DNA of 64,000 nucleotides from the IMG/VR virus record IMGVR_UViG_3300021426_000066; one strand, 5' to 3'. Positions 1-43,840 of the stretch are shown piece by piece. Both the position numbers and the translations under genes were made by a program. The DNA is from a virus (taxonomy: Duplodnaviria; Caudoviricetes). How positions within the stretch are numbered: the first letter of the stretch is position 1; the number at the start of each line of letters is the position of its first letter. Under the pieces are notes generated by a model. It did no database searches. It had not been told where the DNA came from and was given only the letters and a program-made list of their open reading frames with translations.

Positions 1-62
1 CAGGTTTTTGATAGAGGGTCTGCCACCCCCATGACCACAAATTTTAATATCTTTGTCTGTCA

Positions 63-428
63 TTAATTCTCACCAACCTTTCTATTATATCCATATTCAG
101 CATCAGAACTCCTAAATCCATTAACCAGATTTTCTTCCAGTTTCCATGCAACGTCTGCGTCCATAATCGTGTCAGCTATTATAATAGACTCAATATCGTC
201 TCTGCCTTCAACAGCAATGCTATATTCAACAGAATTGCTATACTTTCCAATTTCGGGATCAACCCCCATACGAACATGACCGTTCTCTTTGTATTCCTCG
301 AATTGCATTACTCTGACATAGAACTTAGGAGTTCTTATTAATTTATTTTCGTACACAGCAGTAGTTGGTATAATATCAACTATAATTTCATACCATGTCA
401 ATTTTTCATTATCCTTGTTATCCATCAT
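63..428 (-). CDS. Degenerate GIY-YIG-like nuclease-fold protein
   Basis: C-terminal half (…IIIADTIMDADVAWKLEENLVNGFRSSDAEYGYN) fits the GIY-YIG 'A..LE..LI...S....GYN' pattern; the GIY/YIG motifs themselves are eroded (FYV…RMG). Confidence 0.45.
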   Translation of the reverse strand: MMDNKDNEKLTWYEIIVDIIPTTAVYENKLIRTPKFYVRVMQFEEYKENGHVRMGVDPEIGKYSNSVEYSIAVEGRDDIESIIIADTIMDADVAWKLEENLVNGFRSSDAEYGYNRKVGEN

Positions 429-5300: not shown

Positions 5301-8300
5301 TTAGAATCAAGTTCAGCAACCTGAGATGCTACTTTAAGCGTACCATCTGATTCCATGTAGATAGGTTGAGTGACTGAACCTAATGCAGTTTGTGGTGCGG
5401 CATGGGCAACTTGCTGCCAAGCGTTCCAAGCGGTTTGAGACGAAGTACGATAATACATGGTGTTTTTAGTTGTACTGGCATTGTAATGCATATAAATCTG
5501 CGCTGCATAATCAGGGGTAGTGTTTCCTGACGGTTTACGATAAGCCATTGTAAATACTTCACCATAGCCATAAGTGGTTGGACCATTAGTCAAAGAACCA
5601 GTAATATTAGTAACACTTGTATCATAAATTGTGTTTAAATCAGATGGTGATGATTTTAACGGAACATTGCCAGAGGCTGTTCCTGTAACGTTACCTGTAA
5701 CATTGCCAGTCAAAGCCCCATAAAAAGTCGAGGCTTCAACTTCTGTTGCTACACCGTTTCCGTTACAAAATTTATATCTATTAATTTTCGCATCCGATGT
5801 ACCATCGTGCCATTTATAGCCCACATAAAGTGTTGTTGCACTGGATGGCTTAGCTGCAAAACGTATTTCATTTTGAGCAACGATACTTAAATAATTAGCA
5901 ATAGTTGCAGTTGATGCGCTACTAGCTGTAACCGCATTACCATTCAAAGTTACGCTCCCGTTAGAATCAGCATATACAATCCACTTATTATGTTTCCTAG
6001 AATAAATACCACCGTAACCTGATGAACCAACAATAAATGCTACCTGATTAGGGTTGGTAGATTGAGTGTTATTTACTTCAACACCACATTCACCTGCTCT
6101 GGTAATATAGAGACTGTTGGAAAGAGGAACTGATGAACCCGCTGTGAGGGGTAAATCAAGTGAAGCATGACCTGTCAACGAACCTGAAAATGTAGTGGCA
6201 TGAATGCCTCCAGCATTATCTAAATAAATATTTGTATCAAAAGCAGTAGAACTCGATCCTCGCTGTCCAAAATATAAGAGACCGCCTTTGTCTCGAATCT
6301 CCCAATCATTCAGCGAATCAGTGAGGGATCCTCTTTGAAAGATAATTGCAGGAGAATTTCCTGAAGAGACAGATAAGGTTAAGTCACCTGTAAGAGTTCC
6401 ACCAGATAAAGGTAATGCATAATTCATATAATTACCAGCATGTAAAACTGCTTGTGTATCCCAATAAAAACTACCATCACCACTAAAAGTAAGTCTCTTA
6501 TAAGTATCTCCACTTTTTACTCTAAATTCAGCTTTAGTGTTGGTATGACTAGTTCCCGGTATATAATAATGCACATACACCGTTCCATCTGTGTCACTAT
6601 ATAAATTATGGTAATAGTGAGCGGGAAATCTAGACCATCTAACATCCTGATTAAATAATAGATTGCCAGACAGTGTTCCACCAGTAAGAGGGAGAGCATA
6701 TGAAGAGTAATTAACAGAATCTAATAATCGTCTCCATGACTCCCATTCTGTAGTTACTCCCATTCTAGTAAAAATACCAGTATCATTAAACGCTATTTCA
6801 TGCGCTTTCCCTCCTGAAGAATCGGCCCATCCTCGTAAACCCACAATATAAGAATATGTATCATTGGATGGATTATTTACCGTCGCTTTATTTTTTAAGC
6901 CAACGAATACAATTTTATTTTTATAATCGTTCGGAGCAGTTGCTACTGAGCGATTATCGCCTAAAGTAATTAATGCTTTGGCCTCATCTGCTGTCGTTGC
7001 TTTGGTCGCAGATCCAACACTTACGTTAGTCACATTAATCCATTTTTGTGTGCCACCATTGGCAAAACCATCAATTGTAAGAAGATAAGAAGTTGAAGTT
7101 GCTTCGGGTAAGGCAGTGCTATTAGACCATTTGATTGACCCCGTCATAGTACCGCCTGTGAGGGGCAAATAATTTGCACCATTTGCTGGCGTATATCCCA
7201 GAGCAGTAGTCACATTGCTACTCGTTAATTCACCACGGATGGTTGCTGAGGATTTGTTCTCAACATTACCGAGGCCAAGACCTGCTTTAGTGACATTTAT
7301 TGTTTTACCCTCAGTTCCATCATAAGAATTAAGCGTTGTAGAATTAAGCTGAACTGTTAATGTGGGTTTGGGGTTGTAGTTGGTTTTATAAGGAACTTGG
7401 ATGCAGGTTACGCCGTTGTCGGGTTCAGGGATAACAGAAGCTGCATCCTTAGCTGTAAACTGAAATTCAAATAATGATAAATCAATATTAGTTAATTTGC
7501 CTAAAGATTCATTTATAACATCCGCACTAACAGTGGGATAATAGATAAATGAAGATGCCCTTAAAGCAATAGCCACATATTCCGTGGAATTCTTTGTATA
7601 TTTAAATAAATAAACATTTGGATGCCAACCACCATTATCTACTACTCCTTGCATACAAAGTTCGTCACTATAGATATAAAAGACTATGCTTAAATCAATA
7701 GGACATGAGCTATTATATGCGAAACCTGTAATATGGACTATGGGCATTAGATTTGACGACACAAACTTAATACCAGTATATAAAATAATTTCATCCACCT
7801 GAGAGCTAGAATATGTACTGGCAACATTAATTCCTTGGTTTTTTATTTGTAAATAATTGTTGGATTTTAATGCCGTAGCAGTTAATAATCCAGTACTTGG
7901 ATTAGCATATATAGAATTATTTCTCAATGCAATATTAGTGCCACTTGCTCCAGTATTTGTATTTGCAAAATAACTCATTAAAAGTGGCAAATCGTAATTT
8001 TGTGAATATAATGTCTGCGTTACTTTGGTATCAGTAAACACGGCATTGCTAGGTACGTCAGCCTCAACCGTATGACCATTTACTACATCAGCACTACCAG
8101 AATAAAGCCTTACTTGTCCTTTCCTGTATGCAAAAATAGGATGGACAGCTTGGAACAAGAAGTAATTTGCTCCAGAGGATTGATTTCCTAACCGACCAAG
8201 AGTTATATAAGCTTTACCATCATCCGAAGTAGGAAGAGTATCTGTTATGATGGATGGATCTACTGTAGCTGTGTTACCAGAGATGGTCACAACTAAATAG

Positions 8301-16217: not shown

Positions 16218-19200
16218 TTATAACGAGAATTCTAAGCAAATTCCCGAATTTCCAGTAGGTGACCAATAATCTCTAGTACCAGGGGCATTGTAGCTATCAA
16301 TACCAACGATATAATGCCATGTGTAGGTATAAGCAGGCATGGCAGATCTCGTCATGTACTTACCTAATGTACCATCAGGGAATCTACGTTCTCTGTCAGC
16401 GGCAGTCAGCAGATAGTCAATGGTGTAGTTACCATTGCTGTCTGGCTCACCTGCTTCTTGGTCATAAGGTGCATAGTTAGATGTAGATACCAGAGACAGG
16501 ATAGCGGGAAGAGCAAAATAGCAATCGCCTGTTGCTACAGTTGCCGTACTTTCTGTCGTACCAGAATCAGTATAACCCTCATTAGCACTAATACGGCATT
16601 GCTTGATTAACTGTCTCCATAATACAGGAACAGCATTATAGAAACGAGTGTTCAAAATACGATAGTTCTGTTTGCTTAACCAACCGCCAGCATTCGTACC
16701 ATACATAATTGGCATAGGATTACTTAACAGATGACTCATTAAGAACGTCATACTTGTTCTTGCACCAGAACCATCAGATAAATAATACCGTCTCAATCCA
16801 CACATTTCCGCCGTAATCGTTTCTCTGGGCCATAATGCCATATCACGACAAGCTTGATCTCCTAAATCAGCATAATACAACTTCGCAGAGTAAATTGTAC
16901 CCTGTGCATAAGAACTGATAGCACCATCATCATCAATAGCTGCTCCGAATACCAGAGTAGCATGATTAGTGGTAACACTTCTTGTAGCACTAAGTGTGCT
17001 ATAAACAATAGCTTCATTAGGCTGGTTACCTGCATAGATGTGCAGAGTATTGTCACCTGCTAAGTGACGTAATACAACAATATCTCTTACATCTCCAGCA
17101 CCCACAGAGGCACTATTTGTACCCCAGATGACTTTATAACCATTCGTAGATCTGAGTCTGAATCCATTACTACCATAACCTTGATAGCATTGGAAGAGTA
17201 CGCTGTTATTACTTGTGGCGCTATTCCACTTATAGTCAACAACGAGTGTCCAATCTTTATCTTCATCAAGTAAAGGAATCTCTGTATCATAATAATCGTT
17301 GGCCGCACCTGTAAATGTTCTTTCCGTAGGAAGAAGATTTACAGATTCAATATTATCATACTCATAGTCGATTCCCATTGTGAAACTAATTCGATCTTTA
17401 GAATTAACTGTAATAGGTAATTGACCATTACGCTTATTCTGAAGAACAGCGTAAATTTGAGTCGGTGTCATATCAGCCAGACTCATTTCTTTAAGTGCAT
17501 CCTCATTGTATCTATAAGTCTCATAATCTGCTTCAATATCAATATCGCCTGTGATGATAGGATAGGTCTTCCAACCTTTGAACAGATTATAAACATAGGA
17601 AGGCTCCTGAGCAGTATAAGTGGGCATAGGACCATTATATTGAGCCGTAGAACCATAAGCGCCAGTCTTCGTATCTAACACAGTGCCATCAATATTAAGG
17701 AATCTTACTGTATATAAATGATCTGTCTCAGAATAAACAGCGCTAATTGTTCTATTGCTACGAATATTATTCAGAGATAAATCCCAACCTGTAAACGTAT
17801 AATCCTTAAGAATGGTCTTACCATCTTCCATATAAACAACCATTGTAGGAGTTGCAATAGGATTCTCTGCACGAGTAACAGGATCGACAGCATTATTGCC
17901 TTCGATAATGTGCTGAACATCAAATACTTTACCTTCAGGGTCAATATCAGGATTCTTAAATGTGACTGTGTATGCCTGTAAGATTGCAGCAGACGGTACA
18001 TCAATAACCAGATCCTGCCAAGCAGCGTGATAGCTGTCAAGCGTAAAGGTATCGGTAGCCGCAAGATGAGCAGTACCAGTCAGCACAGATTGAGTAGTTT
18101 CATAACCAGAGGCATCAACACCTGCTAAGTCAAGCAGCGTTTTCAGCCAAGCATCACTTACTGTCCAATCAACATTGGTCGCTCTGAGTCTGCGAAGATT
18201 CGTTGAATTGGTAATCATCTCAACAGTATCTACAATAGGGCAATTCTCAACGACAATACGAATCAGATTCGTATAATCAGCAATTCTGAGATCTGTTAAA
18301 TAAAGCAGATTCTTCAGCGTGATAGAAGAGATTGCAGGCAGATATGCTGTAGAAATCTTACCACCAGATGCAAATGTAATACCTGTAAACGATGTTCCAT
18401 TTGCATAGAATGTTTCAAGATTAGGGCATCCGCTTAAATCCAAAGCACCAGTAAGGTTAGGACAATTACGGACATCCAGAGTCTTCAGCAGAGTGTTATT
18501 ACCCATATTAAGAGTAGTTAAAAACGAGTTACTATATCCTTCTGTCGTGTTACCAATAGTCAGCGTCTGTAATTTTTCTGCCTTGGAGAAGTCATTATCA
18601 TGGATATAACAAGCACTCAGGTCACCAACAGACTGAATCTTGGAAGCACCATAGATAAGAATAGCAGTATCATCCATGGTATCAAAAGGACACTCAATAT
18701 CATATTCCACACCCGCTTTCGCACGAACCTGAGTACGAGACGTAGCACCGTGCATTACAGACAGATACATATTTGCATAAGGAGTCAGATGTAAGGTATA
18801 GTTGGGTTTAACGACAGCTTCTTGTGGTGTATTACATCTAATCATTATCTGGTCAGAGGTTGCCGTATTACCAAACCATCTGGTAGCCATATACATAACT
18901 TGGTCACGGATAAATTGTCTTCTATGATATTTCTTGCGTCCATTTAACATCTGGGTCAGGAATCTGGGCGTAGGAGCATAGAACCTGCCTTTTCCCAAAT
19001 AGGAATTAATATACTTGGTCTGAATGTCAAGTCTCCACAATTCTTCGGGGAACTGATTCTGCCAATTATCAAACTCATTAATCATGCCCTCAGCATTCCA
19101 GCAGTTAGCTGATTCACGGTCAATGAACATAGCTTGCAGTTCATCATGGAATAAATCTCTGACACGGCAGAAGAATGTAGACGTAGCACCATTAAACACA

Positions 19201-20111
19201 TAACCAGAATTCGGGTCACCTGGTGTACGATAATCTGTATCTTCCATACCATAAGGCATTGTCATTTCGCCACTATTATTTATGCCAAGTGCCGAGTCAA
19301 AATCATATCCCCAGAACTCAAATCTATATTCTCCATCTTCACATTTATGCCTCCACCAGAAAGTGTTCTTTGCTCTGTTATCAATCATCGTCCACTGTTC
19401 AGTAAACAGCCAGAAATACAGAGCAGAATCAAGCACAAAATAATCACCTAAGTGGTCATGGAAGTCTTGATCAGTGGAGTTAACAACAAACTTATAAAAA
19501 TCTCTGAATGCCTCAAGATTCGTCTCATGGTCTTCAGTAGTAATGTTTTTCATCTCATAACGCAGACCATAAGTTTCGGTTTTTCCTTCATTGAACGTAT
19601 CTGCTTCCAGACTGGCAATGGCTTCTGCACCACCAGGGAATGTAGAGTTTGGAAGAGTGTTATCCATAATTTCTACACAGAATTCTTTAGGATCGTTCTT
19701 ATCTACAACACGAGTTTTATCTGTCTTTTTGGAATCACCAATATTACCAATAGCATAGAAATGCCAATCTGTATCGTCATACTCTCTATGAGTAGTTAAG
19801 TCTGGATCGTTCTCTCTTACAAACACAACAGCATTATAGAATTCCATCGTATTCTTTACTTTAGAATCATTCTGTTGTGCAAGAGATTGATAAGGAAGAT
19901 AACGATTATATCTCTTTTGAAGAAGAGCGTTATTTGCATTCTCAGAACTCGCGATATTCACCTTCAAATTCATGTAGTCAACAGGTACGGACGTTCTGGA
20001 AAGACTTACTTTGCTTGCGGTTGTTCCGTCACCAAGCGTAATCACCGTAGTATCTGTATTCATAATGAAATCCAGATTTCGTCCAGCAGCAGCATATTCA
20101 TTCGAGGTAGT
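16218..20111 (-). CDS. Exon 2 of 2339-aa multidomain tail protein: CotH-like kinase core, leucine-rich repeats, InlB-B-like repeats, LamG-like domain, DUF6273/CLec-like C-terminus
   Basis: Frame open from 20111 ([16 protein letters not shown]) into ORF 16218..20063; '[13 protein letters not shown]', 'DNRAKN', 'YDFDSALG' kinase-like motifs; LxxLxL repeats; 'YTVRFLN.DG…FKGW'; 'KYMTRS…SGICLEFSL'. Confidence 0.8.
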
Positions 20112-20385
20112 CTTATTGTTACTCTTTTTAAAATAAAAAGGGATGAGTCATTTCTGCTCATCTCTGCATTTTCATTGTTAGATTATATATGCAGAACAGA
20201 TCATACCATTACCCTATTAGGGTACTCCCGTACATATAAATGTCACCATTTATATTGTGATCGTTACGGACTATTTAGTTTCATCTAAATAAGTTGCCCA
20301 CGGTATTGCCTATCTCTAGGTGTCCACCGTTTTGAGAGAGTTTGCTGTATATATTGCTATATAGAGGGGCATAACTTTTCAGTTC
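20112..20385 (-). ncRNA. Group I self-splicing intron (IA-like, 274 nt, no ORF)
   Basis: Exon ends in U (…CAG GGU) pairing with IGS GCCC; terminal G (…AAUAAG); P2 UAUAUA-GCAA-UAUAUA; P3 ACUCUC/GGGAGU; P4 ACGGUG/UACCGU; P5 CCUA-GAGA-UAGG; P6 GGGC/GUCC; P7 GAUCA/UGAUC; P7.1 with GUGA loop; P8 ACCCU/AGGGU; removal restores frame (QG|TTS). Confidence 0.93.
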
Positions 20386-23300
20386 ACCCTGTCCCGAATG
20401 AGATGCACCAGTAGCTGTCCAGTTATCTAATACTGGATCGCCATTTGTATAAATACACTGAATTGTAGTATCAGTTACTTTATCTTTCTTATCGTTCGTA
20501 AAATGAGGACAATCAAGTTTGAAGATACGAAGATCTGGACAAGCTTCAGCCAAATGTTCAGGTGTCAGATTGTTATTCTCGTCATAAATCTGATTACGAT
20601 TATATCTGTTAATCATTTCCTCAGCGCTTCTCGCATCAGCAATGAAGTTATTCAGAATATCCTTGTCAGAGAGAGAAGAGTTATAACACTTCATTCTATA
20701 AATCCATACGTCACATTCAGTAGAACCAATTGTAATATCTACAGGTGTCTCCTGTGTAAAGGAGTCATCGCTTGTATAGACCATAGGACGAAGAGCAACA
20801 CCATCTTCATAACTCATAACCATAGGAATGGTTGCAGTATCTTTGTTAATATTGAATTCAAATTCAATTATATCTTCCTCAGAGTAAGGAATCATTAAGC
20901 TGTTAACAGAAGAAGTTAAATATGCTTGATGAGGTTGCATTTGAAGCCCAACAATATTAGTATCTCCAGAACGACATGTCAGCCAAGTGGTAGACACATC
21001 CCTTACATTAGTTGTTTTGAAAATAAGCTTGAATTCCTTACCATTCTTCTTAGCGTCATCGCCAAACAGCTTATAATCAAACGTTGCCGTAGTACCTGCT
21101 TTGACACAGAAATATTGGTCACCATTACTGTCAATCTGATATCCACCATTAGTCCAGTCAAAGTTGTTGGATACAGACATATGATAAGTATCGTTGCTCC
21201 AGATTCTATCTGCACTATTATTACTATAACCAACAGGATTAAAGTCTAACTGCAAATTCGCTGTAATAGGAGCAATATCAATATCAAGTTCTTCAACAGT
21301 GACTCTAATGGTCTTGACAGTTTCACGGCAAGTAATGGTTAATGTATGTACGCCCGCAGTAGCACTCTTATAACTCCATGTATGCGTACCGTTAGTAACA
21401 GTCTGTGTTCCGATACTAACTCCATCAACTGCTAATGTAACAGTAGGTGTTTCGGTATTAGGATCATAAATGGAATAAACAATATTAGTCGTATCATACT
21501 GTTGTGCAGTAATAGCCTGTCTATTTGTACCAATTACAGGCACATCAGATGTCTCATCGAACCAAATAATATCTTTGTAAATATGATCTGTTTCAATATC
21601 GCTACCACTAATATTAGCAGTAATATAAGCATCCAATAAATGCGCTCCATGCGTCTGGGCAGGAATGGTATATCCCATAGGAAGACCAGAGGATGAAGTT
21701 GTTACTGTACCAATTTCCGTACCATCTAATTTAAAATGAACAACTTTACTAATACTACCGTAAGGCGTATAGTCAAAACTTACAGGTCCAATAGGATAAG
21801 TAAAGCTGTCATTGAACGAAGATTCCAGACGTACATCAACCATCTGTACCGTCCAAGTACGAGTGGCAAGAGTACCATTATCATCAGTAATACTTAATGT
21901 AATTTTCTGTGTACCTAAAGATACAAAATCAGTTACATCAAATGAGTATTCCTGATTAGATGCAAGAGTCTGTGTTCCAAGAACCGTATTACCGATTCTC
22001 CAAGTAGCAGTACCGCCAATATCAATGTTAGAACTATCCAATGATCTGTAATGATATCTTAAGATAACTTTCGATCCTGTTAATGCGACAACTGGAGTTG
22101 TAGTAACATAGGAAATTGTAATCGTAGAAGAAGTCTGCTGACCACCTCCACCACCTCCAACAACTTTAACTGCACATACCGCCGTAGCATTCGCACGAAC
22201 AAATTCGTCACCCTCATATGTCCAGAGAGTAAGCATATACTTTTCAGCATCACTTAAGCTGTCATCAGTATCATAAGTAATGTAATACTTTTCATTCGAT
22301 CCACCACTGACATCAATATTATCAATTGCAGTTTCAAGTTCTGCAATTTTAGTACCAATAGTAGTAATATTACTCTTGTTACTGTTAGCAGTAGATGCTA
22401 TTTCATTCATTGCAAGCTGAATAGAAGATACTGTAGTAGTATTTGCTTTGTCTGCTAACAGCGTATCAACCTCAGATGCAGTATAATACTCATCTCCATC
22501 CAGCTTACCCTCAAGAGTGGCAATAGACTGATTAATAGTGGATAAACTACTATCAATCTGAGCCTTGGTGTAATAATCATCTAGTGCAGTAGTAATAGCT
22601 TCAGAGATTTCAATATCCTGAGATAAATCAAACTGAGCAAGCTGAGTACCATTATCTGTAAAAGTAATAAAATGCGTTACAGGATTATAGGTAATAGCCA
22701 GATGTGTTGCCAGATTATCTACTTCCGTTTTGGTATAATAATCATCCAAAGCTGTTTCAATCTGACCCGCAACTTCTGTAGTCATATCCGCACGAACTGC
22801 TTCTTCAACAGACTCTGCAACATTATCTTTAATCTGGTTAAATTCATCTATCTTTTGGCTAACACTATCTACTGCATTTGTAGCCGTGGTAGCAGCATTC
22901 TTAGCATCAGTCACAGCATTATCAATCTGAATCAGATAAGATTGCCATCCATCAGTAGGCTCAATTAATTCATCGTATGATAATGCCTCTAAAACTGTAA
23001 GCTGAGAATTTGCTCTGGACTTCCAACGGTATGTTCCCGCTGAAGTAGTACCAGTAGCTTGAATTTCAAATTTTAAAGTTCCTGCAACCTGTGTCATAGC
23101 ATCATTCACAAGCATATGGAACATAATATAATCTGTACTATAAGAAACATTACAAGCAGTAGTAATAAATCCCTGTGATTGAGAATTGACTATATAGAAA
23201 CGAATAGTCATCTGCATTAAGTCAATTCCCTCAACATATCTTGGCATACGGAAGCCAATCAATTGAGCATTACTTTCCTGTGTAATGTTAATTTGATTCG

Positions 23301-23511
23301 GGGCCATCGTAATATTTTTGGCGGCATCAACAGTAGAAACAGCCTGATCATCCTTGTATTCGTCATACCAAGAATAAATATTATTTGAAACTTTAACATA
23401 GTCTGTCGCAGATTCAGGTTCGTTATCTGTTTCTGTCACGTTAGTGACCTCTTCTGTCGATTCAGAATCATCACTTATCAAATCACTAAAATTTGAAGGC
23501 ATAGGCTTCAT
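20386..23511 (-). CDS. Exon 1 of 2339-aa multidomain tail protein: BppU-N-like domain, coiled coil, Ig-like and LamG-like domains, start of CotH-like domain
   Basis: AAAGGAGG RBS; '[23 protein letters not shown]…AGTLKFEI'; 'DYYTK' repeats; 1042 codons up to the splice site. Confidence 0.8.
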
Positions 23512-32550: not shown

Positions 32551-35500
32551 TTAATTGTATTTAAACTTACTCAACGAATTTCTACCCATAGCTGCTCCAA
32601 GAGTCATTTCCTGTAATGCATTCTGGAACTGGGTATCTGCAACAAGCTGAGATTTGAATTTATCATAATTCTCAACACCATACAGATTGATAACAAACTG
32701 AACATCACCCATAGACTGGTTGACATTCTGGTTCATATTCTGAACAATAGGTTGAGACATAGCGCTATTGATCATATCAGGAATATTCATTTGAGCAAGT
32801 TTCCAAAGATTTTCACTCATAGCATTAGTAAATACCTTGTCACCTTTACCAAGAGGAGTAAGCATAGCACCATCAGATTTGCGATAGATGACTTCTTGTC
32901 CCTTGTCTTGAGTATAAGCAAGTTGATCCTTTTTAATGTAGGAAGAGCCAGAAGCATAAGTCTTCGCAGTTCCTTTTGCTGTCGAGGGGGCAAAAGCAGA
33001 GGCCAAAGGATTTAAAGCTTGATAAACCGTTGAATTCTTAGATGCTGTAGATGCTTTGGTCAATTTAGCCAATTCAGCAAATAATTTATTTAATTTAACT
33101 TGTAAATCGTTGTATTGTTTGTCAAGATCTGCTTTTTGTGATGCATTCTTTACCACGCGATATTTGTCTCTATTGACTCGCATTTGATTTCGGATATCCT
33201 CAATTTGATCCAATAACGCCCGCTCTTTAGCTTTGTCCACTTGTGTAGTATTTTTAGAGTTTGTGGATATAACTCCTTTATTTTGTTTTGTTATCGCTGC
33301 AAAAACAGCGTCTGCTTGTCGCTGAGTGTCTTCAGTCAACTCTGCTTTGTCTGCTTTCGGTCTAGCGGGACGATCAGCTCCATCCTTGGCTTTTCTTAAG
33401 TCGCTAACTTTTGTAACAACAGCATCAAAACTACCTTTAAGACTCTTATTAACAAAATCCTTTTGAACTTGTGTTAAACTATCATAATATTGTTTCAACT
33501 CATTAACGGAAGCTTCATCATCTAATGTAATTTGATTTTGATTCAGCTTATTAACTAAACCTTCAGCCCTTGTTTCAAACTTTGTAGCAGCTTCTCTATC
33601 AGGTTGTTGAGCAATATATGTTTGCAACTGTTTAAAGATATCGTTCAATAAAGAAGCAGTAGTTGTTTGATCACCATTAAGAGTTAACGCAGAAGTCAGC
33701 GCACTAGATAAGCTATCAACCTTTCCACCAAGTCCGCTCTCTAAGCTATTTAAAGTTTGTACGGTAGACTTAGCAAATTCAGTACTACCAAAGTTATTGA
33801 TATTACCTGCCAAAACTTGAGCCGCTTCTTTAATAACAGCATCACGATCCTTCATATGAGACTCAATCCATTCTTGGAAATTGTTAGATAAATCATCTAA
33901 CATCTTCTGTGAATCAGAAAGGTATTTATCATATTGCTGATCAGATTGATTCTGTCTAGCTTCTTTTAAATCAGCACGAAGTTTCTGGACTCTTGCAACA
34001 GCTTCTTCGGAAGTATTACCTTCAAAAGCGGCTAATTGCTTCTCAAGATTGGTAATATTTTTACTTGACTCAGAAATCTGTTTCTGATAGTCATAAGCAT
34101 CTTTTTCAGCATTCTTTAATTCTTTATACTTATCAATGGTCTTATTGAGATAGGAGAGTTGTGATTCATAAGCTTGTCTAACTAAGTCAATAATAGCCTG
34201 TTTCTCAGCTTCAGTAGCCTCAACGCTTTCCCAATATGCATCGGTCAGTTGTTCAAGTCTATCTCTTACATCTTTATCTGCAATATCATCTTGTTGAGAT
34301 TCGATTCGCTTTTGTAATGCACCAATTTCTTCCGCATACTTTTGCGTTTCCGCAATGAGAGAAGAGTAATTGGCAGTATGCAGGTCTAATGATGCAAGTC
34401 CATATTCAGTAATTTGACCTCTATTATCATCATCAAATAATGTTTGATTTGCAAGGATATTCTGATAATGTTGAATTTCTGCATTAAATCTCTTTACAGC
34501 AGCCATGCCATCATCAAATTCAGTCCATTTTAATTGACGTTTCGCCTTGGATAATTCAATAATGGATTCTGTCAGAGACTCAATATCATTGGTGAAGCCA
34601 TTAATTTCTGCTAATGAAGATGCATAGTCTGGAGTACCAGGTACTAAATCACCACTCTCAACTCGTGCATTGAATTTATCAATAGCTTTTGCACGATTGC
34701 TAAGCAATAACTCCATATTACGATTAGACATTTGAAGTTGCTCATCATAATCAGACTCTTGTGCATAATAACCTTGAGTTCCTGCTAAACTGATATGATT
34801 CTTAGCACGAGTAATACGTTGCTCATTACTATCTGTTGTATTATATGCAAAACGATTTTTATCTGTTTGATGTAAAGAGTAGGTACTTGCACCATTGCCT
34901 AATCTGGATTGTGCATTATAATCAGCTTCATCACGGAAGTTCTTTACTTCTTCGTATGCTCTGGCAGAATTTTCTTTCTTCTGCGCTTCCATAGCCATAT
35001 CATAAGCATATTGAGCGGATTTTTCAGCTTCGAGCCATTCGTTATATCTAATGCATTGTTCCATAAAATTATCAGAAATCTTGCCTTTAGAATAGAGATC
35101 TGCAAGTTTATCCATATTAGGAATGGCTTGTCCATCATGTGCTGCCTGAAGTGCCTTGTTAACTTCGGTTTCGTCTTTTCCAGACAGGCCCATACTCTTA
35201 AGATTAGTTATACTGATTGTATTCCCAAGATCCTTGCGTTGGTTCATCCAGTATGTAAGCCGCTTTTGAGCATTAGCCGTAATATTCCTTTGAATACCAA
35301 TTTCTTGATCCAATAAGGTATTCTTTTCCACAGCAGTGGTACGATTTTCCTTCTGAGACTCTTTTAAAGAAATATCATTGTTGTACGCTTGTTCAATATT
35401 CTCATAAAGAGAATTAGTGTTATTCGTTCTGCTTGCCGCATTTTCAGCATAAGCTGCAACTTCCTCTAAACGGGCAGCTTGCAAATTTGCAACTGTCTGA

Positions 35501-38500
35501 TTATAGGCGATTAATCTAGCAGCTGCCTCTGGAGAAGTCTTTTGGATTTTAGAAATAGTATCCTCAGGAATCAACTGACCTTTATCAACATATTTCTTGA
35601 TATCTTTTAAATACGTCTTAGAAAGTTTATCAACAGCCTTTTTCAGATTCTTTTTATTCTTACCCTTAGCAGTTTTGTTGATATAAGACTTGGCATCTTT
35701 AAAAGCTCTCTTAGCCTGTTTACCATATTTGTCTCTCTGACTGACAAGCATTTTAGTTTCATTACCATATGCTTTATCAGCAATATCTAGATCTGCATTA
35801 GAGGCATTGACTAACATATTGCTATAAGAAGCGTCTGTATCATTAGTCGCTTGGAATCCACCAGTCTTAATTTGGGTAAGAGTCTTAGATCTTTCAATAC
35901 GAGCATCACGTTCTGCGTCACGAACTTCTTTAAGAGACTTGACCTGTTCACGAAGCTGTTCGTTAAGTTCTTCCATAGCTTTTTCAGCTTCATGACCCTT
36001 TTCGTACCATTCTTTGTAAAGGTTAATGGCTTCGGATAAACGTGCTACACCTTTTTCTGATAATTTGTGACCGCTTAAGTCCTTCTTGTTTTTAATTAAT
36101 TGGTCGATATCTTTCTGACTTTTGATTTCACCATTTTGAACAAGAGCTTTGTATTTCTTTTCTTCGCCTTTGGTAATCAGTCCTTTAGACCTTGCAGTTT
36201 TCATTGCTTTATTAGCAAAACTATAATAATACTGACTACCACGGTCTTCGTTACCAATCTGTTTATAAATCTCAGAAATAGCATTGTGATAATTAGCGGC
36301 TGCTATGTCGTAAAGATCTTTTGTCTTCTTTGCGGTATCCTCATAAAAATTCAAAATACCAGTACTCGCAGCATCAGCGGCTTTGTCAAGGGCTGCTTCA
36401 GCTTTGGAAGAGTAGGATTCAATCTTATCTGTAGTGCGAGAAATTTTTACTTCAATCCAATCAAAGATATTTTCAAATAGCTTTTTGAATTTCTCAAGTT
36501 TTTTGTCGGTGTCGTCTTTTTTGTTGTTCTTCTTACTATCACCCTTTTTGCCAGGAGTGGTTTTCTTTGATGTCGAAGAATCATCATCTGTAGAACCAGT
36601 TTTTACTCTCTTTTTTCGTTTAACTGGGCCGTCAGCAAAGGCCGTACCACCTGTTCCACCAGCAAAGGCCATTTGTCCACGAGAATTAATATGACCATTT
36701 TTAAGAAGTTCCTCTGTTTGTTTATGGTTAAAAATTATATCGCCTTTACGAACTTCATTAAATTCTGCTCCATCCTGTCCTAATAATTCCCAACGAGAAC
36801 CACGAACACGCAATTCGGGACCAAGCTCACCAGTAAGAGCCGGTTCAGTTTTCTTCGCCCCAATATCACCACGAGCATCAGCACGACCAAATATTGAAAA
36901 CTTAGCAGTACCTTGTGAAAAATGAGCCGTTCCTTGGTACTTCGGACCTGTTCCGCCACTATTGTTAAGATTGGGAACATTACCCTCTTGTGTAATTTTG
37001 ATTTTTACTTCTTTATCTTCAAGTAAATTAATTTTATCTTTTAAAGAATCAACATGCGTGGACGCTGTTGAAATATACCCACTTAAAGCTATAAATCCCA
37101 AACTGCCGACAGAGGGGGTAGAAGAGATCTGGCTACCTAAATTGCTGGCTTTCCCGGTTACAGTATCAATATTACCACCTAAAGCTTCATAAGCTTGCTG
37201 AACCGGGCCAAGCACTGCATCATCGACCTTTAATGCTTGGTTTAATGAATCTCCACTCTGTGCTATAGCTGTATTAAATGCTTCCATCGATCCTTCTTCA
37301 AGGCCCAAAGAAACTTTTATTTCAGGATGTTGATTTTGGTAATCTAAAACCGCTTGAGCAGCTTGATCAGCAGATGATTGGGCTTCTTCAACTTCTTGAT
37401 GACTTCCAGTACCATTATTGGATCTATGTTTGGCTATTTTATATGCATCAGATGCTTGTTGAGCAAGTTGTATTAATTGAACATATTCTGCTGTAGTATC
37501 ATCCAACTGAGAAGTATCTACTTTCATAATAGCGGGCTGTTCAAGTTCGACCTTTTTAGCATAAATAAAATCTATTTCAGCCAATACTGCTTTATATGCT
37601 TCGGGGTCAATTTCAACACCCATTTCAATCATTTCAGATTTTTGCTGTTCTAATTGACCTAAGGTTTGATCAGCTTGCCAAGCGGTAGCTATAGTATCTG
37701 GTATTTCTACTTGAGTTTGTGTACCAAAACTGTTCGCCTGTTCGTTTAGCTGAGCTAATTCTTCAGGAGTTTTAAAGTCTTTGGCGAGAATTTCTAATTG
37801 CGCAAGTTGTACTTTTGCATTTTTTATCAATTCTCCCCATGTTTTCCATTCTTCGCTACCTTTTGTTAATTTTTCTTGGTACTCTTCCATATAAGCGATA
37901 TTTTCTTTTAACGCTTGTGGGTCATTCGTATAAGTACCACCTTGTTCAGGATTACCCCAGCCTGCATCAGCCATGCTAGATAACATTTCTTGCACAAGGG
38001 CTGACCCCATTCCTTCATATCCATATTTGTTCTTGGTATATTCAGACATTATATGGGTAAACAATTCATCATTATATACTTCAAAACCACCATCACCGGT
38101 CAGCCAATCATTTAAACCATATTCTTTCAAAGCGTTCAAAGCGTCTGTAAAGAAATTATCTATGCCAACCGTATCTTCAGTTAGATACCTTTTTGCCATT
38201 TTTTGGACATTTTCATAAAAACTGTCTTCCATAATGGCATCAGAATTTTCAACACCAGTTAATAAAGTGGCATAAGATTGGTAATCATCTTTTCCAACCC
38301 AACCTTTTTTATGAAGATCTTCAAATCCGCTCCAACCACCAGTAATACTATTATAAACATCACTTGGATTAGCAGATTGAGAAGCTTCATTCCATGCGTT
38401 CAAAGCATTTACTGTTGATAATAATTCGTCACGATATCTCGCCCAAGATGAGATATTATCTTGAATTGCAGCTTGACTTTCAGATAAAGATACAATTTGA

Positions 38501-41208
38501 TTATTAATAGCTTGTGCTGCTTCATCTGTCGCATAATCTTGATCCCGTAAACGTTGATTGAGTCTTTCAATTTCGGCTTCATTATTAAGATACTGTTCAA
38601 ATAGTTCTTTTTGTTCATCAGTTAACTGCTTGGCAGCACTTATTTTTTCTTGTCTTTGTAATTCTTTAGCTTTATCTGTATTTAGTTGAATGCCAGTAGC
38701 CGTTTCAATTAAAGCATCTTTATAAGCTGAATTAGAAGCAATCAATGCATCAAGAGAATCTTTTGAGATATAACCTTGCTTCTCTTGTTCGGAGACCGCT
38801 GTATTAAAAGCAGACATGGATGTAGATATGTTAGATATCGATTTTTCTATAGCATTTTTAAATTCATTAAATCTTTCCTCTGCACCCTGAACAGAATCAT
38901 CAATTATTAAACCTAATTCACCAAACAAAGCTATGGCTTCTTCAATATTATCAACTAATCCCCAGTCTATAGCCATATTAGATAAACCACGAATAGCTTG
39001 TAACGCTGGATCAGTTACTGCCTCATTCCAATCGATATTCGTTAATTCACTAACGGTTTTATCTTTAATTCCAGATACAATATCACCAAATTGTTTTTCG
39101 ATATGCTCGGGAAACATTTGTTTCAAAAAATCGTTAATATCAAATTGAAGTATATCTGTAACGGAAGCATCCCTTAACCAAGATGTATAATCTATACCTA
39201 AACCACGTAATTGTTGTCCGTAATTTTGTGTAATATTATGAACAGATTGTTTAATTAATTCACCATTAGCAGTAATATCTAATGATTCTCTTAATAAATC
39301 AATTGTATCTTGATCAAGATGAAATGTAGAAGCTAATTGTTGCAGATATTCATTCATAGTATCTGAATATTCTGTTTGCTTTATTTTTGTGTAATCAGGA
39401 GTTAGCAAATTTTGCATGATTTCACCAATATCATTATCTTTAGTAAAATCAGTGCGTCGCAATGTTGCAAACATAGATTCAAATTGTAAATCACTAATTC
39501 CAACATTAGAAGCTATCGTTTCCAAATTACCCAACGCAGCTACTAATTCTTCATTACCTTCATCGATTGAACCAACAAGGAGGCTATAATTATCTCTCAA
39601 CGAGGTTTGAGCTTTCCCAATTTGTTCGCCAACTTTTTCTAAATCAGCCAGTATTTGTTGAGCTTCAGAATCACTATCAAGAGAGTATTTATACATACCC
39701 AAATAGTTACCCATATCATCATACATAGGTGTTTCTTCACCTTTGGCTTCTTTAGCTTGAAGTTGTTTATATCTATCTTGTAATTCTTTACGCTTGTTAA
39801 CTAATTCTTTATAAGATTCTTGACCACCCGCTGTAAGTGTTTCACCAGTTTCTTTTTGAATATTTTCTCTAGCTTGGTCCCTTAACGCTTCTTGTTTAGC
39901 AAGAGATAATTCTTTGTATTTATCAATTTGTGCTTGTATTTGATCATTCGTTGCTATAATAGCCTGACCCTCTGCATCATATCCCACAATCAATTCAGGA
40001 CTTTGATCAGCAATTTGTTGACGAATCTTAAAATACTCATCTGAACCGACTTCAGCTTCTTTATATTGATCTAAAAGAGATTGTAACGAAGAAGCATTAT
40101 CATCATAATCTGATTTCTCGTCTTTAATTGCTTGAACACGCTTGGCATCTTGCTCAATCATCCTCTCATTTCGCTTAATAATTGCATCGGTAGAAGTAGC
40201 TATTTCATCATAAATTTTTTTAACTGCATATATAGCCAACGCGGCAGCAGCAATGAGCGCAAAAGTTTTTACGAGTTGAAGATTCTGATTAACCACATTA
40301 CCAGCAGCTACTTCTAAACTGGTCATATCTTTTATAGCTTCATCGGCAAAACCCGCTTTAGGAAATAATTTCATCATTGCATCTTGAGTCGCCGCGAAAT
40401 TACCACCATTAAGCGCAGATATATTACTAAGCATTGAATATGCTTGCAATCCCCTTAAGCTAGGGATGCTTAACCCTCCCCCAGCTTTTAGCATTCCAAA
40501 CAGACCACCGCCAAGACCTTTAAGACCCATAACACCGAATGTTGTAGCTACTAATGCTTTTACAGGTCCAATATTATCTGCTAATTCGTTAAATGCTTCA
40601 GCTAAGTTTATTACAAAATCTAAAATACCTTTGGTCGCATCAGAATTATATAAATCGATCCAGAAAGAATCCATCTCAGTACGAATCTTTTGCGTTTTTC
40701 CAGCAATAGACTCTTCATATTTTTCCTGATTCTCTAAAGCACTTCCTTGGCTATTTGTAGCTTGTTCAGCTAATTGCATTGAATCAGTCCATGCCATAAG
40801 GATATTCTTAAACTTTGATGTCTGTCTTGTCGCCGCAATGTTAAATGCGATATTCGCCTGCTGTGCATCACTTAAACCATCCCATTTTTCACGAAGCTGA
40901 GTAAGGATGGTGATCATATCGTTCATTTCGCCACTTGGCTTATATACCTGTACACCCACAGCAGCTAACGATTCAGACGCTTTAGAAACTGTAGAGCTAT
41001 CAATTTCTTCGGCATATTGAGGCATTTTATTAACCTTAGAGATACGAGTAATGATAGTTTTCATTGCATTACCAATTGAACTACCATCTTCACGAGTTCT
41101 CTCTGCAACCTTAGCCGAAATAGCAGCTAATTGCTCAAATGACATGCCAGCATCATGAGCAACCTGACCTGTAGCTGTAACTGCTTGTGTAATAACACCG
41201 ATACCTTT
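32551..41208 (-). CDS. Exon 2 of tape measure protein (TP901-family core; spliced length 3638 aa)
   Basis: Frame open from 41208 (KGIGVITQAV…DAG MSFEQL); 'TREDGSSIGNAMKTIITRI' TMP core; long coiled coils; two 'GELGPEL…KGD.IF'-type motifs. Confidence 0.9.
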   Translation of the reverse strand, partial: KGIGVITQAVTATGQVAHDAGMSFEQLAAISAKVAERTREDGSSIGNAMKTIITRISKVNKMPQYAEEIDSSTVSKASESLAAVGVQVYKPSGEMNDMITILTQLREKWDGLSDAQQANIAFNIAATRQTSKFKNILMAWTDSMQLAEQATNSQGSALENQEKYEESIAGKTQKIRTEMDSFWIDLYNSDATKGILDFVINLAEAFNELADNIGPVKALVATTFGVMGLKGLGGGLFGMLKAGGGLSIPSLRGLQAYSMLSNISALNGGNFAATQDAMMKLFPKAGFADEAIKDMTSLEVAAGNVVNQNLQLVKTFALIAAAALAIYAVKKIYDEIATSTDAIIKRNERMIEQDAKRVQAIKDEKSDYDDNASSLQSLLDQYKEAEVGSDEYFKIRQQIADQSPELIVGYDAEGQAIIATNDQIQAQIDKYKELSLAKQEALRDQARENIQKETGETLTAGGQESYKELVNKRKELQDRYKQLQAKEAKGEETPMYDDMGNYLGMYKYSLDSDSEAQQILADLEKVGEQIGKAQTSLRDNYSLLVGSIDEGNEELVAALGNLETIASNVGISDLQFESMFATLRRTDFTKDNDIGEIMQNLLTPDYTKIKQTEYSDTMNEYLQQLASTFHLDQDTIDLLRESLDITANGELIKQSVHNITQNYGQQLRGLGIDYTSWLRDASVTDILQFDINDFLKQMFPEHIEKQFGDIVSGIKDKTVSELTNIDWNEAVTDPALQAIRGLSNMAIDWGLVDNIEEAIALFGELGLIIDDSVQGAEERFNEFKNAIEKSISNISTSMSAFNTAVSEQEKQGYISKDSLDALIASNSAYKDALIETATGIQLNTDKAKELQRQEKISAAKQLTDEQKELFEQYLNNEAEIERLNQRLRDQDYATDEAAQAINNQIVSLSESQAAIQDNISSWARYRDELLSTVNALNAWNEASQSANPSDVYNSITGGWSGFEDLHKKGWVGKDDYQSYATLLTGVENSDAIMEDSFYENVQKMAKRYLTEDTVGIDNFFTDALNALKEYGLNDWLTGDGGFEVYNDELFTHIMSEYTKNKYGYEGMGSALVQEMLSSMADAGWGNPEQGGTYTNDPQALKENIAYMEEYQEKLTKGSEEWKTWGELIKNAKVQLAQLEILAKDFKTPEELAQLNEQANSFGTQTQVEIPDTIATAWQADQTLGQLEQQKSEMIEMGVEIDPEAYKAVLAEIDFIYAKKVELEQPAIMKVDTSQLDDTTAEYVQLIQLAQQASDAYKIAKHRSNNGTGSHQEVEEAQSSADQAAQAVLDYQNQHPEIKVSLGLEEGSMEAFNTAIAQSGDSLNQALKVDDAVLGPVQQAYEALGGNIDTVTGKASNLGSQISSTPSVGSLGFIALSGYISTASTHVDSLKDKINLLEDKEVKIKITQEGNVPNLNNSGGTGPKYQGTAHFSQGTAKFSIFGRADARGDIGAKKTEPALTGELGPELRVRGSRWELLGQDGAEFNEVRKGDIIFNHKQTEELLKNGHINSRGQMAFAGGTGGTAFADGPVKRKKRVKTGSTDDDSSTSKKTTPGKKGDSKKNNKKDDTDKKLEKFKKLFENIFDWIEVKISRTTDKIESYSSKAEAALDKAADAASTGILNFYEDTAKKTKDLYDIAAANYHNAISEIYKQIGNEDRGSQYYYSFANKAMKTARSKGLITKGEEKKYKALVQNGEIKSQKDIDQLIKNKKDLSGHKLSEKGVARLSEAINLYKEWYEKGHEAEKAMEELNEQLREQVKSLKEVRDAERDARIERSKTLTQIKTGGFQATNDTDASYSNMLVNASNADLDIADKAYGNETKMLVSQRDKYGKQAKRAFKDAKSYINKTAKGKNKKNLKKAVDKLSKTYLKDIKKYVDKGQLIPEDTISKIQKTSPEAAARLIAYNQTVANLQAARLEEVAAYAENAASRTNNTNSLYENIEQAYNNDISLKESQKENRTTAVEKNTLLDQEIGIQRNITANAQKRLTYWMNQRKDLGNTISITNLKSMGLSGKDETEVNKALQAAHDGQAIPNMDKLADLYSKGKISDNFMEQCIRYNEWLEAEKSAQYAYDMAMEAQKKENSARAYEEVKNFRDEADYNAQSRLGNGASTYSLHQTDKNRFAYNTTDSNEQRITRAKNHISLAGTQGYYAQESDYDEQLQMSNRNMELLLSNRAKAIDKFNARVESGDLVPGTPDYASSLAEINGFTNDIESLTESIIELSKAKRQLKWTEFDDGMAAVKRFNAEIQHYQNILANQTLFDDDNRGQITEYGLASLDLHTANYSSLIAETQKYAEEIGALQKRIESQQDDIADKDVRDRLEQLTDAYWESVEATEAEKQAIIDLVRQAYESQLSYLNKTIDKYKELKNAEKDAYDYQKQISESSKNITNLEKQLAAFEGNTSEEAVARVQKLRADLKEARQNQSDQQYDKYLSDSQKMLDDLSNNFQEWIESHMKDRDAVIKEAAQVLAGNINNFGSTEFAKSTVQTLNSLESGLGGKVDSLSSALTSALTLNGDQTTTASLLNDIFKQLQTYIAQQPDREAATKFETRAEGLVNKLNQNQITLDDEASVNELKQYYDSLTQVQKDFVNKSLKGSFDAVVTKVSDLRKAKDGADRPARPKADKAELTEDTQRQADAVFAAITKQNKGVISTNSKNTTQVDKAKERALLDQIEDIRNQMRVNRDKYRVVKNASQKADLDKQYNDLQVKLNKLFAELAKLTKASTASKNSTVYQALNPLASAFAPSTAKGTAKTYASGSSYIKKDQLAYTQDKGQEVIYRKSDGAMLTPLGKGDKVFTNAMSENLWKLAQMNIPDMINSAMSQPIVQNMNQNVNQSMGDVQFVINLYGVENYDKFKSQLVADTQFQNALQEMTLGAAMGRNSLSKFKYN

Positions 41209-41581
41209 CGATATGTTAACTTATAGGCTTTTTATCCTATAATTCTGGAAGTTTCCTTCATACTACTATCGGCTAAATAATAGATACGTCTGTCAATTCA
41301 GACCAGTCCAGCATATATTATCACCCTCGTTTAACGTTAGGACAATAGGAGACTAACCCTATTGTAAGTATTCTATAAACACTTGTGCAAACCACTCTTG
41401 CGGACATTTTATTCTGTTTATTAAAAACAGGTTCAATCCGTATGCGTTACGGTGCTATAAGTTTTTTAATCCTCATAGTTACCTCGGTGTTAACTTGTTA
41501 ATTTATTCATAAATTAATTTAGTCTTCACCGATTTTGGTTTGTTTTCAATAAATCATTTCTGATTTATGCTCCTAATTAAA
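41209..41581 (-). ncRNA. Group I self-splicing intron (IA-like, 373 nt, no ORF)
   Basis: Exon ends CUCU pairing with IGS GGAG (U·G at splice site); terminal G (…AUAUCG); P2 AUAAAUCA-GAAA-UGAUUUAU; P3 CAAACC/GGUUUG; P4 UCGGUG/CACCGA; P6 GGU/ACC; P7 GCAUA/UAUGC; removal restores frame (MDYS|KGI). Confidence 0.92.
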
Positions 41582-43840
41582 AGAGTAGTCCATAGCGACA
41601 TTCGCAGAAATATCATTTAATACGTCAACAACATGCATTGATACATCAGCAGCATCTGCTTCAGAATCTTTGAGCATATCAAACTGTTGAATAATACCCT
41701 GAACTTCATCAGCAGCAGTAGAAGCATCAACACCAGACAGGTTACTCAGAATAACTGTAGGTTTTGCTAATTGTTGAATCTCTTCAGCGGAAGTGTTCAT
41801 ATTAGCGTAAATCTTATAGACATCTTCAGCATTGGCTACCGACATCGAAAGATCTTTAGCCATATCAATGGCAGATTTTCCAAGTGCATCCAATTCTTTT
41901 GAAGTCATATTCATTGTATAACTAATATTAGTTAACGTTGAATCATACTCCTTAAACGTAGACATACCCGCTGTTAATTCGGAACGAAGTTTCATAACAG
42001 CAGAGTAGCCCATTATTAGTTGAGGTAATTGATGAATCATGCCACCAATGCTCTTAGAAAATCCAGTTAAAAAAGCATTCTGCCCTTGACTTACAGTAGA
42101 AGACATTCTCCATGCATTGGATAATTTCTCTACTTGACCTGTAAGTTGAGTGATCTGTCCAGATGTAGTTTTATAAGTACGAGTCACTTTAGTCTGATCT
42201 GCATTCCATTTTTCTGTTACTAAAGCTCCAAGTTGAGCAGCTTTAGCGTACTTATCCATTTGAGCAGTCATGTCAGCCGCATTTTTAATCTGTCCTTGGT
42301 CTAATAGATAGCCTTTGTTGTTTTGAATTTTTGTTTCATCTTGAATCTGTCCAAGTATCTTTAATTGATTTTGTAACTTAGAATTATATTCCTCTACCTT
42401 GTCTGGATTATGCATATTTTGCTCAAGCAATTGCATAGTTCTGACAGTATCCGTTAATTGTTGTGTCCATGCCCCAGAACGTTGTTCGTCTCCGAAAGAT
42501 TGAAGTTTGGTCCTCGCTTTATCAATGATAGAAGAGACTTTTTCAAAATCAACAATAGCTTGTTTAGCTTTAAGTTCTGCTTCAACATTCGCATGATTAT
42601 CTTTAACCTGCTTTTGAACAATGGCTGCATCAGCAGCATATTCAGGTGAGCCAGAATAAAATTTTAATTCTTCTTCCAACTCTGCTTTTCTTTGTTCCAA
42701 AGCTTGAAGAATAGGTGCTTTTGCTTTTTCTGCTGCTTGCCTTTCAGAAGCAGTCATGCTTTCGAAATCAGCTTTAATTTTAAGAATTTGAACATCTACT
42801 TTTTGAAGATCTTCAGATAAACCTTTAAAATCTGTATTATAAGAAACTGTTGATGGAGTTGCTTTTCCGTCTTCCCCTAACTTATATCCAACTCTCATTG
42901 TTTGATGAGGTTTGGTTTTATATGTTACAGATGATCGCTTATCAGATAAACGTTCTGTTTGATATATCGGAAGACCCTGATTGACCAAATCATTGACATA
43001 TTGCGCTTCTTCGTCTGACAACCTTTTTGTTTTTCCAGATGATTTTGTGCTATTCCTTTTCTTTAAATAATTCAAAGATAGATTTTTTTTTTCTAATTTT
43101 CCCCATAAACCATATTTAATATTATTTTGAATTACTTCGTCAGCAAACTTATCAAGTCCCCATTTCTCAACATCTCCACCAGTGTCGGTAATGTTTTTTA
43201 ATAAACTGTTTACATAAGTTTCTAATCCCTTCGGTCCCTCTGCTTTTAATATTGTATTCATAGCAGAATACAAATTATTAATTGAAACCACAGAACTTTG
43301 TACTTTTTGATGGACTTCATTAATAACTTTTTTTATACCCGGAATTTGTTTTTCTAAAGAGTCAAATGAAAAATCTTGCCCTTTCAAAATTCTATAAGAA
43401 TTAAAAGTTTCCATTATTTCAGAACGTAAAGCTGGATCTGCTTTTTTCCCCGTTCTAGCATTTGATAAATAATCAGAAACCTGTCCTTTTAAATCTTCAA
43501 ATAATGCATCTGTATCAGTAAAACGCCCCATTCTTTCAATAGTTAGCCTTGATGGGGTTCCGTTTGGTAAAGCTTTCTTCTTAATATAATCCTTAGCCTG
43601 ATCTACCGTTAAATCTTTTCCTGCTTTATACAGCTTTTGAACAGATTCATAAGTCTTTTCTATATCTTTTCTAGCTTTGTCGCCGCCTGAAGATTTAATG
43701 TTTACGTCAACCTCTGTGGTGACTTTTTTATTCTCTAGAAGATCTTTAACTATTCCATTCGCAGATTTGGAAGCACCTGAAACCAGATCGCCAATTTCTT
43801 TTTCTCCCATTAGTTTCCCGCCAGTAAATGTTTTCCCCAT
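41582..43840 (-). CDS. Exon 1 of tape measure protein
   Basis: AAAGGAGG RBS; ends with the first half of the TP901 TMP core ('EYDSTLTNISYTM…VVDVLNDISAN'); 753 codons to the splice site. Confidence 0.88.

Follow-up and report, generated by a model that had tools for sequence, protein, structure and literature searches.

The window analysed here is a 64,000-nt stretch of IMG/VR record IMGVR_UViG_3300021426_000066, and all coordinates count from its first letter. It carries a tail module in which a split tape-measure gene, a minor tail protein, a Dit-like DUF6558 protein, a BppU_N baseplate protein, a CotH-domain gene and tail-fibre-like genes follow one another. On the minus strand, ORF A (1076 aa) starts at 23511 and terminates with the stop 20283..20281, and a downstream frame is open from 20111 to its stop at 16218-16220, with its first ATG at 20063. 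The two frames keep their order on the PHROG profile phrog_14959 (2494 positions), ORF A at 501-1091 and the downstream frame at 1362-2000. A CotH domain and an LRR match also lie in the downstream frame; the Pfam CotH alignment starts at profile position 113, ∼173 residues past the splice junction proposed below. The coordinates of the exons, of the 274-nt element between them and of its helices are collected in Table 1.

Table 1. Features of the split tail-protein gene, its intron and the split tape-measure gene. Intron position p is 20386 minus the window coordinate.
Feature	Position	Strand	Remarks
Exon 1, tail-protein gene	20386..23511	-	1042 codons; ends ..CAT TCG GGA CAG GGT (HSGQG); last base U is the predicted 5' splice-site U
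Exon 2	16218..20111	-	1297 codons + stop; begins ACT ACC TCG
Putative ORF-less group I intron	20112..20385	-	274 nt; missing from the intron-less allele; manual model; covariance models R1-R3
P1	20367..20389	-	exon GGGU (20389..20386) with guide G16-C19 (20370..20367); U·G at splice site, U20386 with G16
P1 extension hairpin	intron 1-15	-	GAAA loop
P2	20348..20363, intron 23-28/33-38	-	GCAA loop
P3	20336..20341 with 20224..20229, intron 45-50/157-162	-	ACUCUC/GGGAGU; register set by relatives
J3/4	between P3 and P4	-	A-rich
P4	within 20300..20330, intron 56-61/81-86	-	manual model, core alignment
P5	within 20300..20330, intron 66-69/74-77	-	GAGA loop; J4/5 A-rich, J5/4 CAA
P6	within 20268..20299, intron 87-90/115-118	-	manual model, core alignment
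P6a	within 20268..20299, intron 95-101/108-114	-	UGA of unspliced frame in loop
J6/7 and P7 5' strand	20258..20267, intron 119-128	-	J6/7 GUA (119-121); A(C)GAUCA
P7	intron A122-U188, bulged C123, 124-128/183-187	-	A(C)GAUCA/UGAUCU; G-C after bulge expected to bind guanosine
P7.1	20234..20255, intron 131-139/144-152	-	9 bp, GUGA loop
P3 3' strand and P8	20211..20229	-	GGGAGU 157-162; P8 163-167/171-175
J8/7 and P7 3' strand	20198..20210, intron 176-188	-	AAUGGUA (176-182); UGAUCU
P9	within 20124..20195, intron 191-197/217-223	-	19-nt loop AUAUAAUCUAACAAUGAAA, mostly conserved in relatives
P9.1	within 20124..20195, intron 224-244	-	GAAA loop
P9.2	within 20124..20195, intron 246-262	-	manual model
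Omega-G (terminal guanosine)	20112, intron 274	-	..UAACAAUAAG
Split tape-measure gene	43840..32551	-	two ORFs: 43840..41573, 41145..32551
Second ORF-less group I-like element	41209-41581	-	in the tape-measure gene, between its two ORFs

Given that 274 mod 3 is 1, the reading frame shifts by one across the unspliced gap. Removal of the 274 nt leaves a 5' exon that ends at 20386 and a 3' exon that starts at 20111, each at a codon boundary (..CAG GGT and ACT ACC), and joins 1042 and 1297 codons into a single frame of 2339. The predicted spliced junction is GGACAGGGU|ACUACCUCG in RNA and the junction peptide ..SHSGQGTTSNEY... Moving the boundary by one base leaves the protein unchanged but puts a G at the exon end and an A at the intron end; the rules for group I introns therefore pick the boundaries at 20386 and 20111. 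In the unspliced frame a UGA stop is met at intron nt 103-105 (window 20283..20281), inside the P6a loop, in agreement with the preliminary description, which had the 1076-aa frame end within P6a. On the question whether QG|TTS is the glycine-rich loop of the CotH kinase fold, a PDB sequence search returned no match and a literature search yielded no useful result.

A census of the window's minus strand found a Shine-Dalgarno motif (GGAG, GAGG or AGGA, in many cases AGGAGG) ahead of 28 of 42 ORF starts. The same census of 42 starts revealed none upstream of the ATG at 20063, which had been described as lacking a ribosome-binding site, and both of the intron-made pseudo-starts in the window (20063 and 41145) are without the motif. 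At the start of ORF A the sequence AGGAGG ends one base before the annotated ATG at 23511 (..AAAGGAGGT ATG); this spacing is unusually short, so that translation of the 2339-aa gene may in truth begin elsewhere.

An allele that lacks the element is present in IMG/VR contig 3300021387_000090 (154.7 kb), which is ∼75% identical to the window at the nucleotide level in the region of this gene. With blastn, the alignment of exon 1 extends as far as the junction and that of exon 2 begins 9 nt past it, and between the two blocks lie 10 nt in the relative versus 284 nt in the window. The relative thus lacks exactly the 274 nt, and its single frame of at least 2201 aa reads straight through the predicted spliced peptide, which agrees with the product expected earlier from precise excision at a codon boundary. 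The last glycine codon of exon 1 is GGG in the intron-less allele and GGU in the intron-bearing window; the window codon would in this way supply the U that is needed at a group I 5' splice site.

A more distant homologue, XTK82179.1 of phage NatCom_3357 (PV036416.1, Ca. Heliusvirales), is a single CDS of 1673 aa, which three annotated CDSs separate from the tape-measure and Dit genes upstream of it. Its alignment reaches the end of exon 1 (..SGAEVDVQG versus ..TGASHSGQG in the window) and resumes with TSSQYYARKNYKIKF (VQG-TSSQYY) opposite the start of exon 2. The intron-free homologues reading QGT[TS]S for which the preliminary description had proposed a search are therefore represented by both sequences, neither of which is encoded as two genes. 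The 1.7 kb around the insertion site had no blastn match among 50,697 phage records. The comparisons with uninterrupted homologues support the reading of the two ORFs as one gene.

To describe the element, each proposed helix was checked by hand for pairing. In this manual model all helices from P1 to P9.2 formed with standard pairs, including the P3/P7 pseudoknot. The minimum free energy of the whole RNA was -67.1 kcal/mol versus -48.3 ± 4.3 for shuffled sequences (z = -4.4; none of 200 shuffles was as good). The complete group I core that had been proposed on the minus strand is thus recovered, and the U·G pair of P1, the GNRA loops of P2 (GCAA), P5 (GAGA) and P7.1 (GUGA) and the terminal G could be read directly. 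The P3-P8 part of the proposal stood in that its helices form, but the register of P3 was corrected to 45-50/157-162 by comparison with relatives. No convincing P10 pairing was found in the manual model, in which nothing longer than 1-2 bp could be drawn; this, and the single hairpin between P7 and P3', count against the assignment.

Restoration of the frame during translation, by ribosomal bypassing or frameshifting, is an alternative to splicing for which nothing specific was found beyond the one-base difference between the frames over the gap. It would have to carry ribosomes across 274 nt that contain stops in the upstream frame, the first being the UGA at intron 103-105, and the structure in the gap is a ribozyme core and not a pair of take-off and landing sites. 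We consider this reading hardly credible.

Introns of subgroup IA2 carry two hairpins, P7.1 and P7.2, between P7 and the 3' strand of P3. The corresponding segment of the window intron holds the single hairpin P7.1 and has no room for a second. The T4 td, nrdB and nrdD introns and those of Twort are introns that we take to be IA2, and the T4 record annotates its three as group IA only. Given the single P7.1 hairpin, and nearest certified relatives that are annotated only as IA, the modelled structure is best called a phage IA type that is related to IA2 and not a strict member of it.

The preliminary description had proposed a scan with Rfam Intron_gpI and had held that the lack of any covariance-model match would speak against a group I intron. 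RF00028 gave no match on the whole window at its gathering score (50 bits), none at E ≤ 10 on either 701 or 301 nt around the intron, and none at E ≤ 1 on eight loci that hold members of the intron family described below. This negative result counts against the group I call. In control searches the same model scored T4 nrdD at 105 bits and three Twort elements at 64-101 bits; where cores are interrupted by endonuclease ORFs, T4 td reached 40 bits and T4 nrdB was missed. The weak scores of td and nrdB raised the possibility of a general blindness of Rfam to phage IA introns, which was ruled out by the scores of ∼100 bits for the contiguous nrdD and Twort cores. Because such contiguous cores score so highly, the family of the window intron lies truly off that model, and support for the assignment comes from custom models and comparative data.

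Three covariance models were built. With R1, made from the core of the window intron alone (P7 included, P3 left out), the best two non-self matches in 109 kb were the 5' half of T4 td (E = 0.004) and the element in the tape-measure gene of the window (E = 0.055), these E-values, like the others from the custom models, being rough because the models were short-calibrated. R2, a model of the 3' half, found a strong homologue elsewhere in the genome of the intron-less relative (rough E = 4e-9); over the whole T4 record it had no match, and a slower search aligned the 3' half of nrdB weakly (E = 0.8). R3, built from the window intron and four relatives, gave similarly rough values with Twort (locus L005) of E = 7e-11 (52.8 bits) at 1424-1583, E = 6e-4 at 1712-1892 and E = 0.11 at 1057-1278. 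Its matches in T4 were nrdD (L045, 5827-5672; E = 1.7e-6) and the 5' half of td (E = 0.003), and the tape-measure element of the window was matched at E = 0.001 (again approximate). The best outside matches of R3 are therefore introns of Twort and T4 nrdD, and RF00028 certifies those same stretches at 64-105 bits. In a plain alignment of the window core with the second Twort element, 97 of 140 positions were identical (z = 6.7). Rough as the E-values are, the pattern of matches is clear-cut and establishes the 274-nt insert as kin to certified group I introns; of the earlier statement on covariance models, the part that concerns Rfam went against the intron, and the custom model found certified introns.

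A pattern drawn from the window intron and the homologue found with R2 (CCGTAACGA, a gap and TGGTGACA) returned 35 loci from IMG/VR, and R1 and R2 confirm about 14 homologous elements, most of them in phage contigs of 100-200 kb. The exact core pattern with the P7 of the window intron had no match in IMG/VR, and the window itself was not recovered by it either. A second member in the window itself is probable: the element in the tape-measure gene shares CCGUAACG, has the P7 A(C)GCAUA/UAUGCU, and is matched by R3 at 41545-41308.

In a core alignment of five sequences, which was fitted to the proposed structure (P3 excepted) and whose covariation values are for that reason inflated, 94.1% of cells pair, versus 29-49% with the partners slid, and both partners differ in 24 of 41 modelled pairs, a number reached in none of 500 shuffles. 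Covariation extends to every helix, and P3 shows it even though it lay outside the models, with four complementary versions in five relatives (ACUCUC/GGGAGU, AGCCAC/GUGGCU, AGUCAGC/GCUGACU and AGUGGC/GCCACU). The versions of P7 are GAUCA/UGAUC, GACUA/UAGUC, GACUG/CAGUC and GAGUA/UACUC, in which all five relatives keep the first G-C and the next A-U, whereas the three pairs beyond them covary. This upholds the earlier view of GAUCA/UGAUC as a compensated variant. The stems of P2 differ among relatives, and two of them likewise carry GNRA loops, GUAA (L007 and L016) and GUGA (L032). Intron 3' ends in relatives read ..AAAAUG, ..AAAUUG, ..AAAUCG and ..AAAUAG.

Inspection of the insertion sites reveals that P1 is adapted to each of them across the family, with the exon/guide pairs UGGGU/GCCCA, CUGGU/GCCAG, CGGU/GCCG and GUCGGU/GCCGAC in relatives. 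The contig that lacks the window intron holds a homologous intron of 282 nt (L007 1396-1677; IMG/VR 3300021387_000090, about 6784-7065) in a virion structural gene of phrog_2729, six codons after the gene start (MAFMLG|DIIVDRVQ). The ATG of its downstream ORF (L007:1675) is the last three bases of the intron. The orthologue of this gene in the window (51455..50655; MAFMLGEVIIDRVQ) is uninterrupted and confirms the MAFMLG|D/E junction. The window lacks that intron and the relative lacks the window intron, so each phage has a family member at a site that is empty in the other. In L016 a member interrupts the phrog_2729 gene at a second site, and in L032, L033 and L039 members interrupt tape-measure genes; each of these insertions follows GGU. 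At L033:6054-7886 (IMG/VR 3300045988_136255) two family introns divide the tape-measure gene (PF10145) into three exons, with a middle exon of ∼92 codons. The first of the two contains a 319-aa ORF (6164..7123) at the position of the P6 loop that matches PHROG HNH/homing-endonuclease families (E = 4e-43); Pfam gave no match to this ORF. For the window intron, a search of the ten neighbouring ORFs with Pfam and PHROGs found no homing-endonuclease gene.

The location of an endonuclease ORF within a family member bears on a further alternative, that the 274 nt are an insertion of another kind (a miniature mobile element, a structured intergenic RNA or an assembly artefact), that the likeness to group I introns is coincidental and that the gene is naturally split. 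The lack of a match to the curated Rfam family speaks for such a reading. On the other hand, the insertion is exact to the base and its removal restores a conserved peptide, no terminal repeats are present, the element is preceded by U and closes with G as expected of group I introns, and certified group I introns head the outside matches of R3, as set out above. With an endonuclease ORF at the P6 loop position of one member as well, this explanation is very improbable and largely refuted.

We therefore assign a probability of about 0.9 to the reading that 20385..20112 is an ORF-less IA-type group I intron interrupting one gene of 2339 aa, the product of which is a tail or baseplate-associated protein with a CotH domain. 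By analogy with the group I class, the primary late transcript would fold so that exon GGGU pairs with guide GCCC, placing the U·G pair at the cleavage site. Free guanosine would be bound at the P7 G-C that follows the bulged C and would attack after U 20386, and the freed exon end would then attack after the terminal G at 20112. Ligation of ..CAGGGU to ACUACC.. would restore the frame ..HSGQG-TTSNEY.., and unspliced RNA would yield only the 1076-aa fragment that ends at the UGA in the P6a loop. The intron itself lacks a homing endonuclease, and the family to which it belongs is spread over structural genes of related large phages, with its members inserted at differing GGU sites.

That the element actually splices, and does so efficiently, is what we infer from its sequence. 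A descendant of a group I intron that splices poorly or no longer, leaving either a recent pseudogene or two polypeptides (the 1076-aa product and one from an internal start), would be consistent with an Rfam score below detection, a weak P10 and a P7 that departs from the GACUA/UAGUC of the T4 and Twort introns. Yet every core helix is intact, the change in P7 is fully compensated and the P7 G-C pair and bulge are kept. Furthermore, both exons are still open over 1042 and 1297 codons, no Shine-Dalgarno motif precedes the first downstream ATG in a genome dependent on such motifs, and the homologues are single proteins. Loss of splicing is consequently judged distinctly unlikely, and an active intron is preferred.

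Several known phage introns resemble the one in the window. Three ORF-less group I introns in orf142 of Staphylococcus phage Twort were reportedly described by Landthaler and Shub in 1999. The gene is a tail-tube gene (PMC11878797). Like the window intron, the Twort introns are ORF-less, ∼250 nt in length and situated in a late tail gene; the second Twort element and the window core are 69% identical and share ACACCUA..UAGGCAAU and GGGAxUACCCU..AGGGUA blocks. By contrast, the Twort introns score 64-101 bits on RF00028, where the window intron has no match, and their P7 is GACUA/UAGUC and not GAUCA/UGAUC. The window intron further differs from them in its single P7.1 hairpin, its conserved 19-nt P9 loop and its host, a CotH-domain tail gene. 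The group IA introns of T4 nrdD (sunY), td and nrdB have the same layout of J6/7, A(C)GA.. P7, P3', P8, J8/7 and P9 ..CUGCAU..AUGCAG, but they lie in nucleotide-metabolism genes and carry homing-endonuclease ORFs, whereas the window intron is ORF-less and lies in a structural gene.

In cluster J mycobacteriophages, introns occur in capsid and minor-tail genes, and the intron of the BAKA/Optimus minor-tail-protein gene is a 265-bp ORF-less element whose splicing was shown by RT-PCR (PMC3706429). Its likeness to the window intron, which is one by description, extends to an ORF-less intron of ∼270 nt in a tail gene, to its recognition through an allele that lacks it, and to the U that closes the exon and the G that closes the intron. 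The BAKA/Optimus intron belongs to another phage lineage with high-GC actinobacterial hosts, and splicing was shown there whereas for the window it is predicted. In prophages of the Bacillus cereus group, IA2 and IA1 introns, most of which lack an endonuclease gene, interrupt tape-measure, tail-tube and terminase genes, and P1 of homologous introns adapts to new sites (Tourasse & Kolsto 2008, PMC2504315). The same pattern of homologous ORF-less introns at different sites in structural genes, with P1 adapted, is seen in the window, L007, L016, L032 and L033. The Bacillus introns, however, reside in temperate prophages, whereas the window family belongs to uncultured phages of 100-200 kb and has a CotH-domain tail gene as a target.

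Published work thus already covers ORF-less group I introns from tail, tape-measure and capsid genes of phages, and only the host gene and the escape from Rfam are mildly new; the known workings of such introns are unchanged by the finding. For annotation, 23511..20281 and 20063..16218 should be joined into one tail protein of 2339 aa, and the tape-measure gene of the window probably needs like joining. The CotH-domain tail protein is an added host gene on the list of intron targets, and the two related phages form a clean natural comparison, each having an intron-plus allele where the other has the intron-minus one. Because RF00028 misses this entire family of well-formed phage group I introns, even when its thresholds are relaxed, intron surveys of uncultured phages that depend on it will undercount split structural genes.

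The 19-nt loop of P9 (intron 198-216, window 20188..20170) is mostly conserved in L007, L016, L033 and L039 (UAUAAYCUAA..AAUGAAA). Conservation of the loop on top of a covarying P9 stem suggests that it makes a contact, either tertiary or in trans. A broader interpretation, which we regard as doubtful, is that the intron and its ∼12 relatives may form a distinct phage IA branch that is invisible to Rfam and specialised in virion genes (tape measure, virion structural protein and CotH tail protein) of large uncultured phages. The P9 loop (UAUAAYCUAA..GAAA) might then take part in a tertiary or trans contact as yet undescribed, and incomplete splicing could deliberately give the 1076-aa isoform beside the 2339-aa protein.

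At the edge of one of the IMG/VR phage loci (L010:6735-6803, minus strand), the Rfam int-alpA RNA was matched with 37.2 bits, against a gathering score of 35.8 bits.
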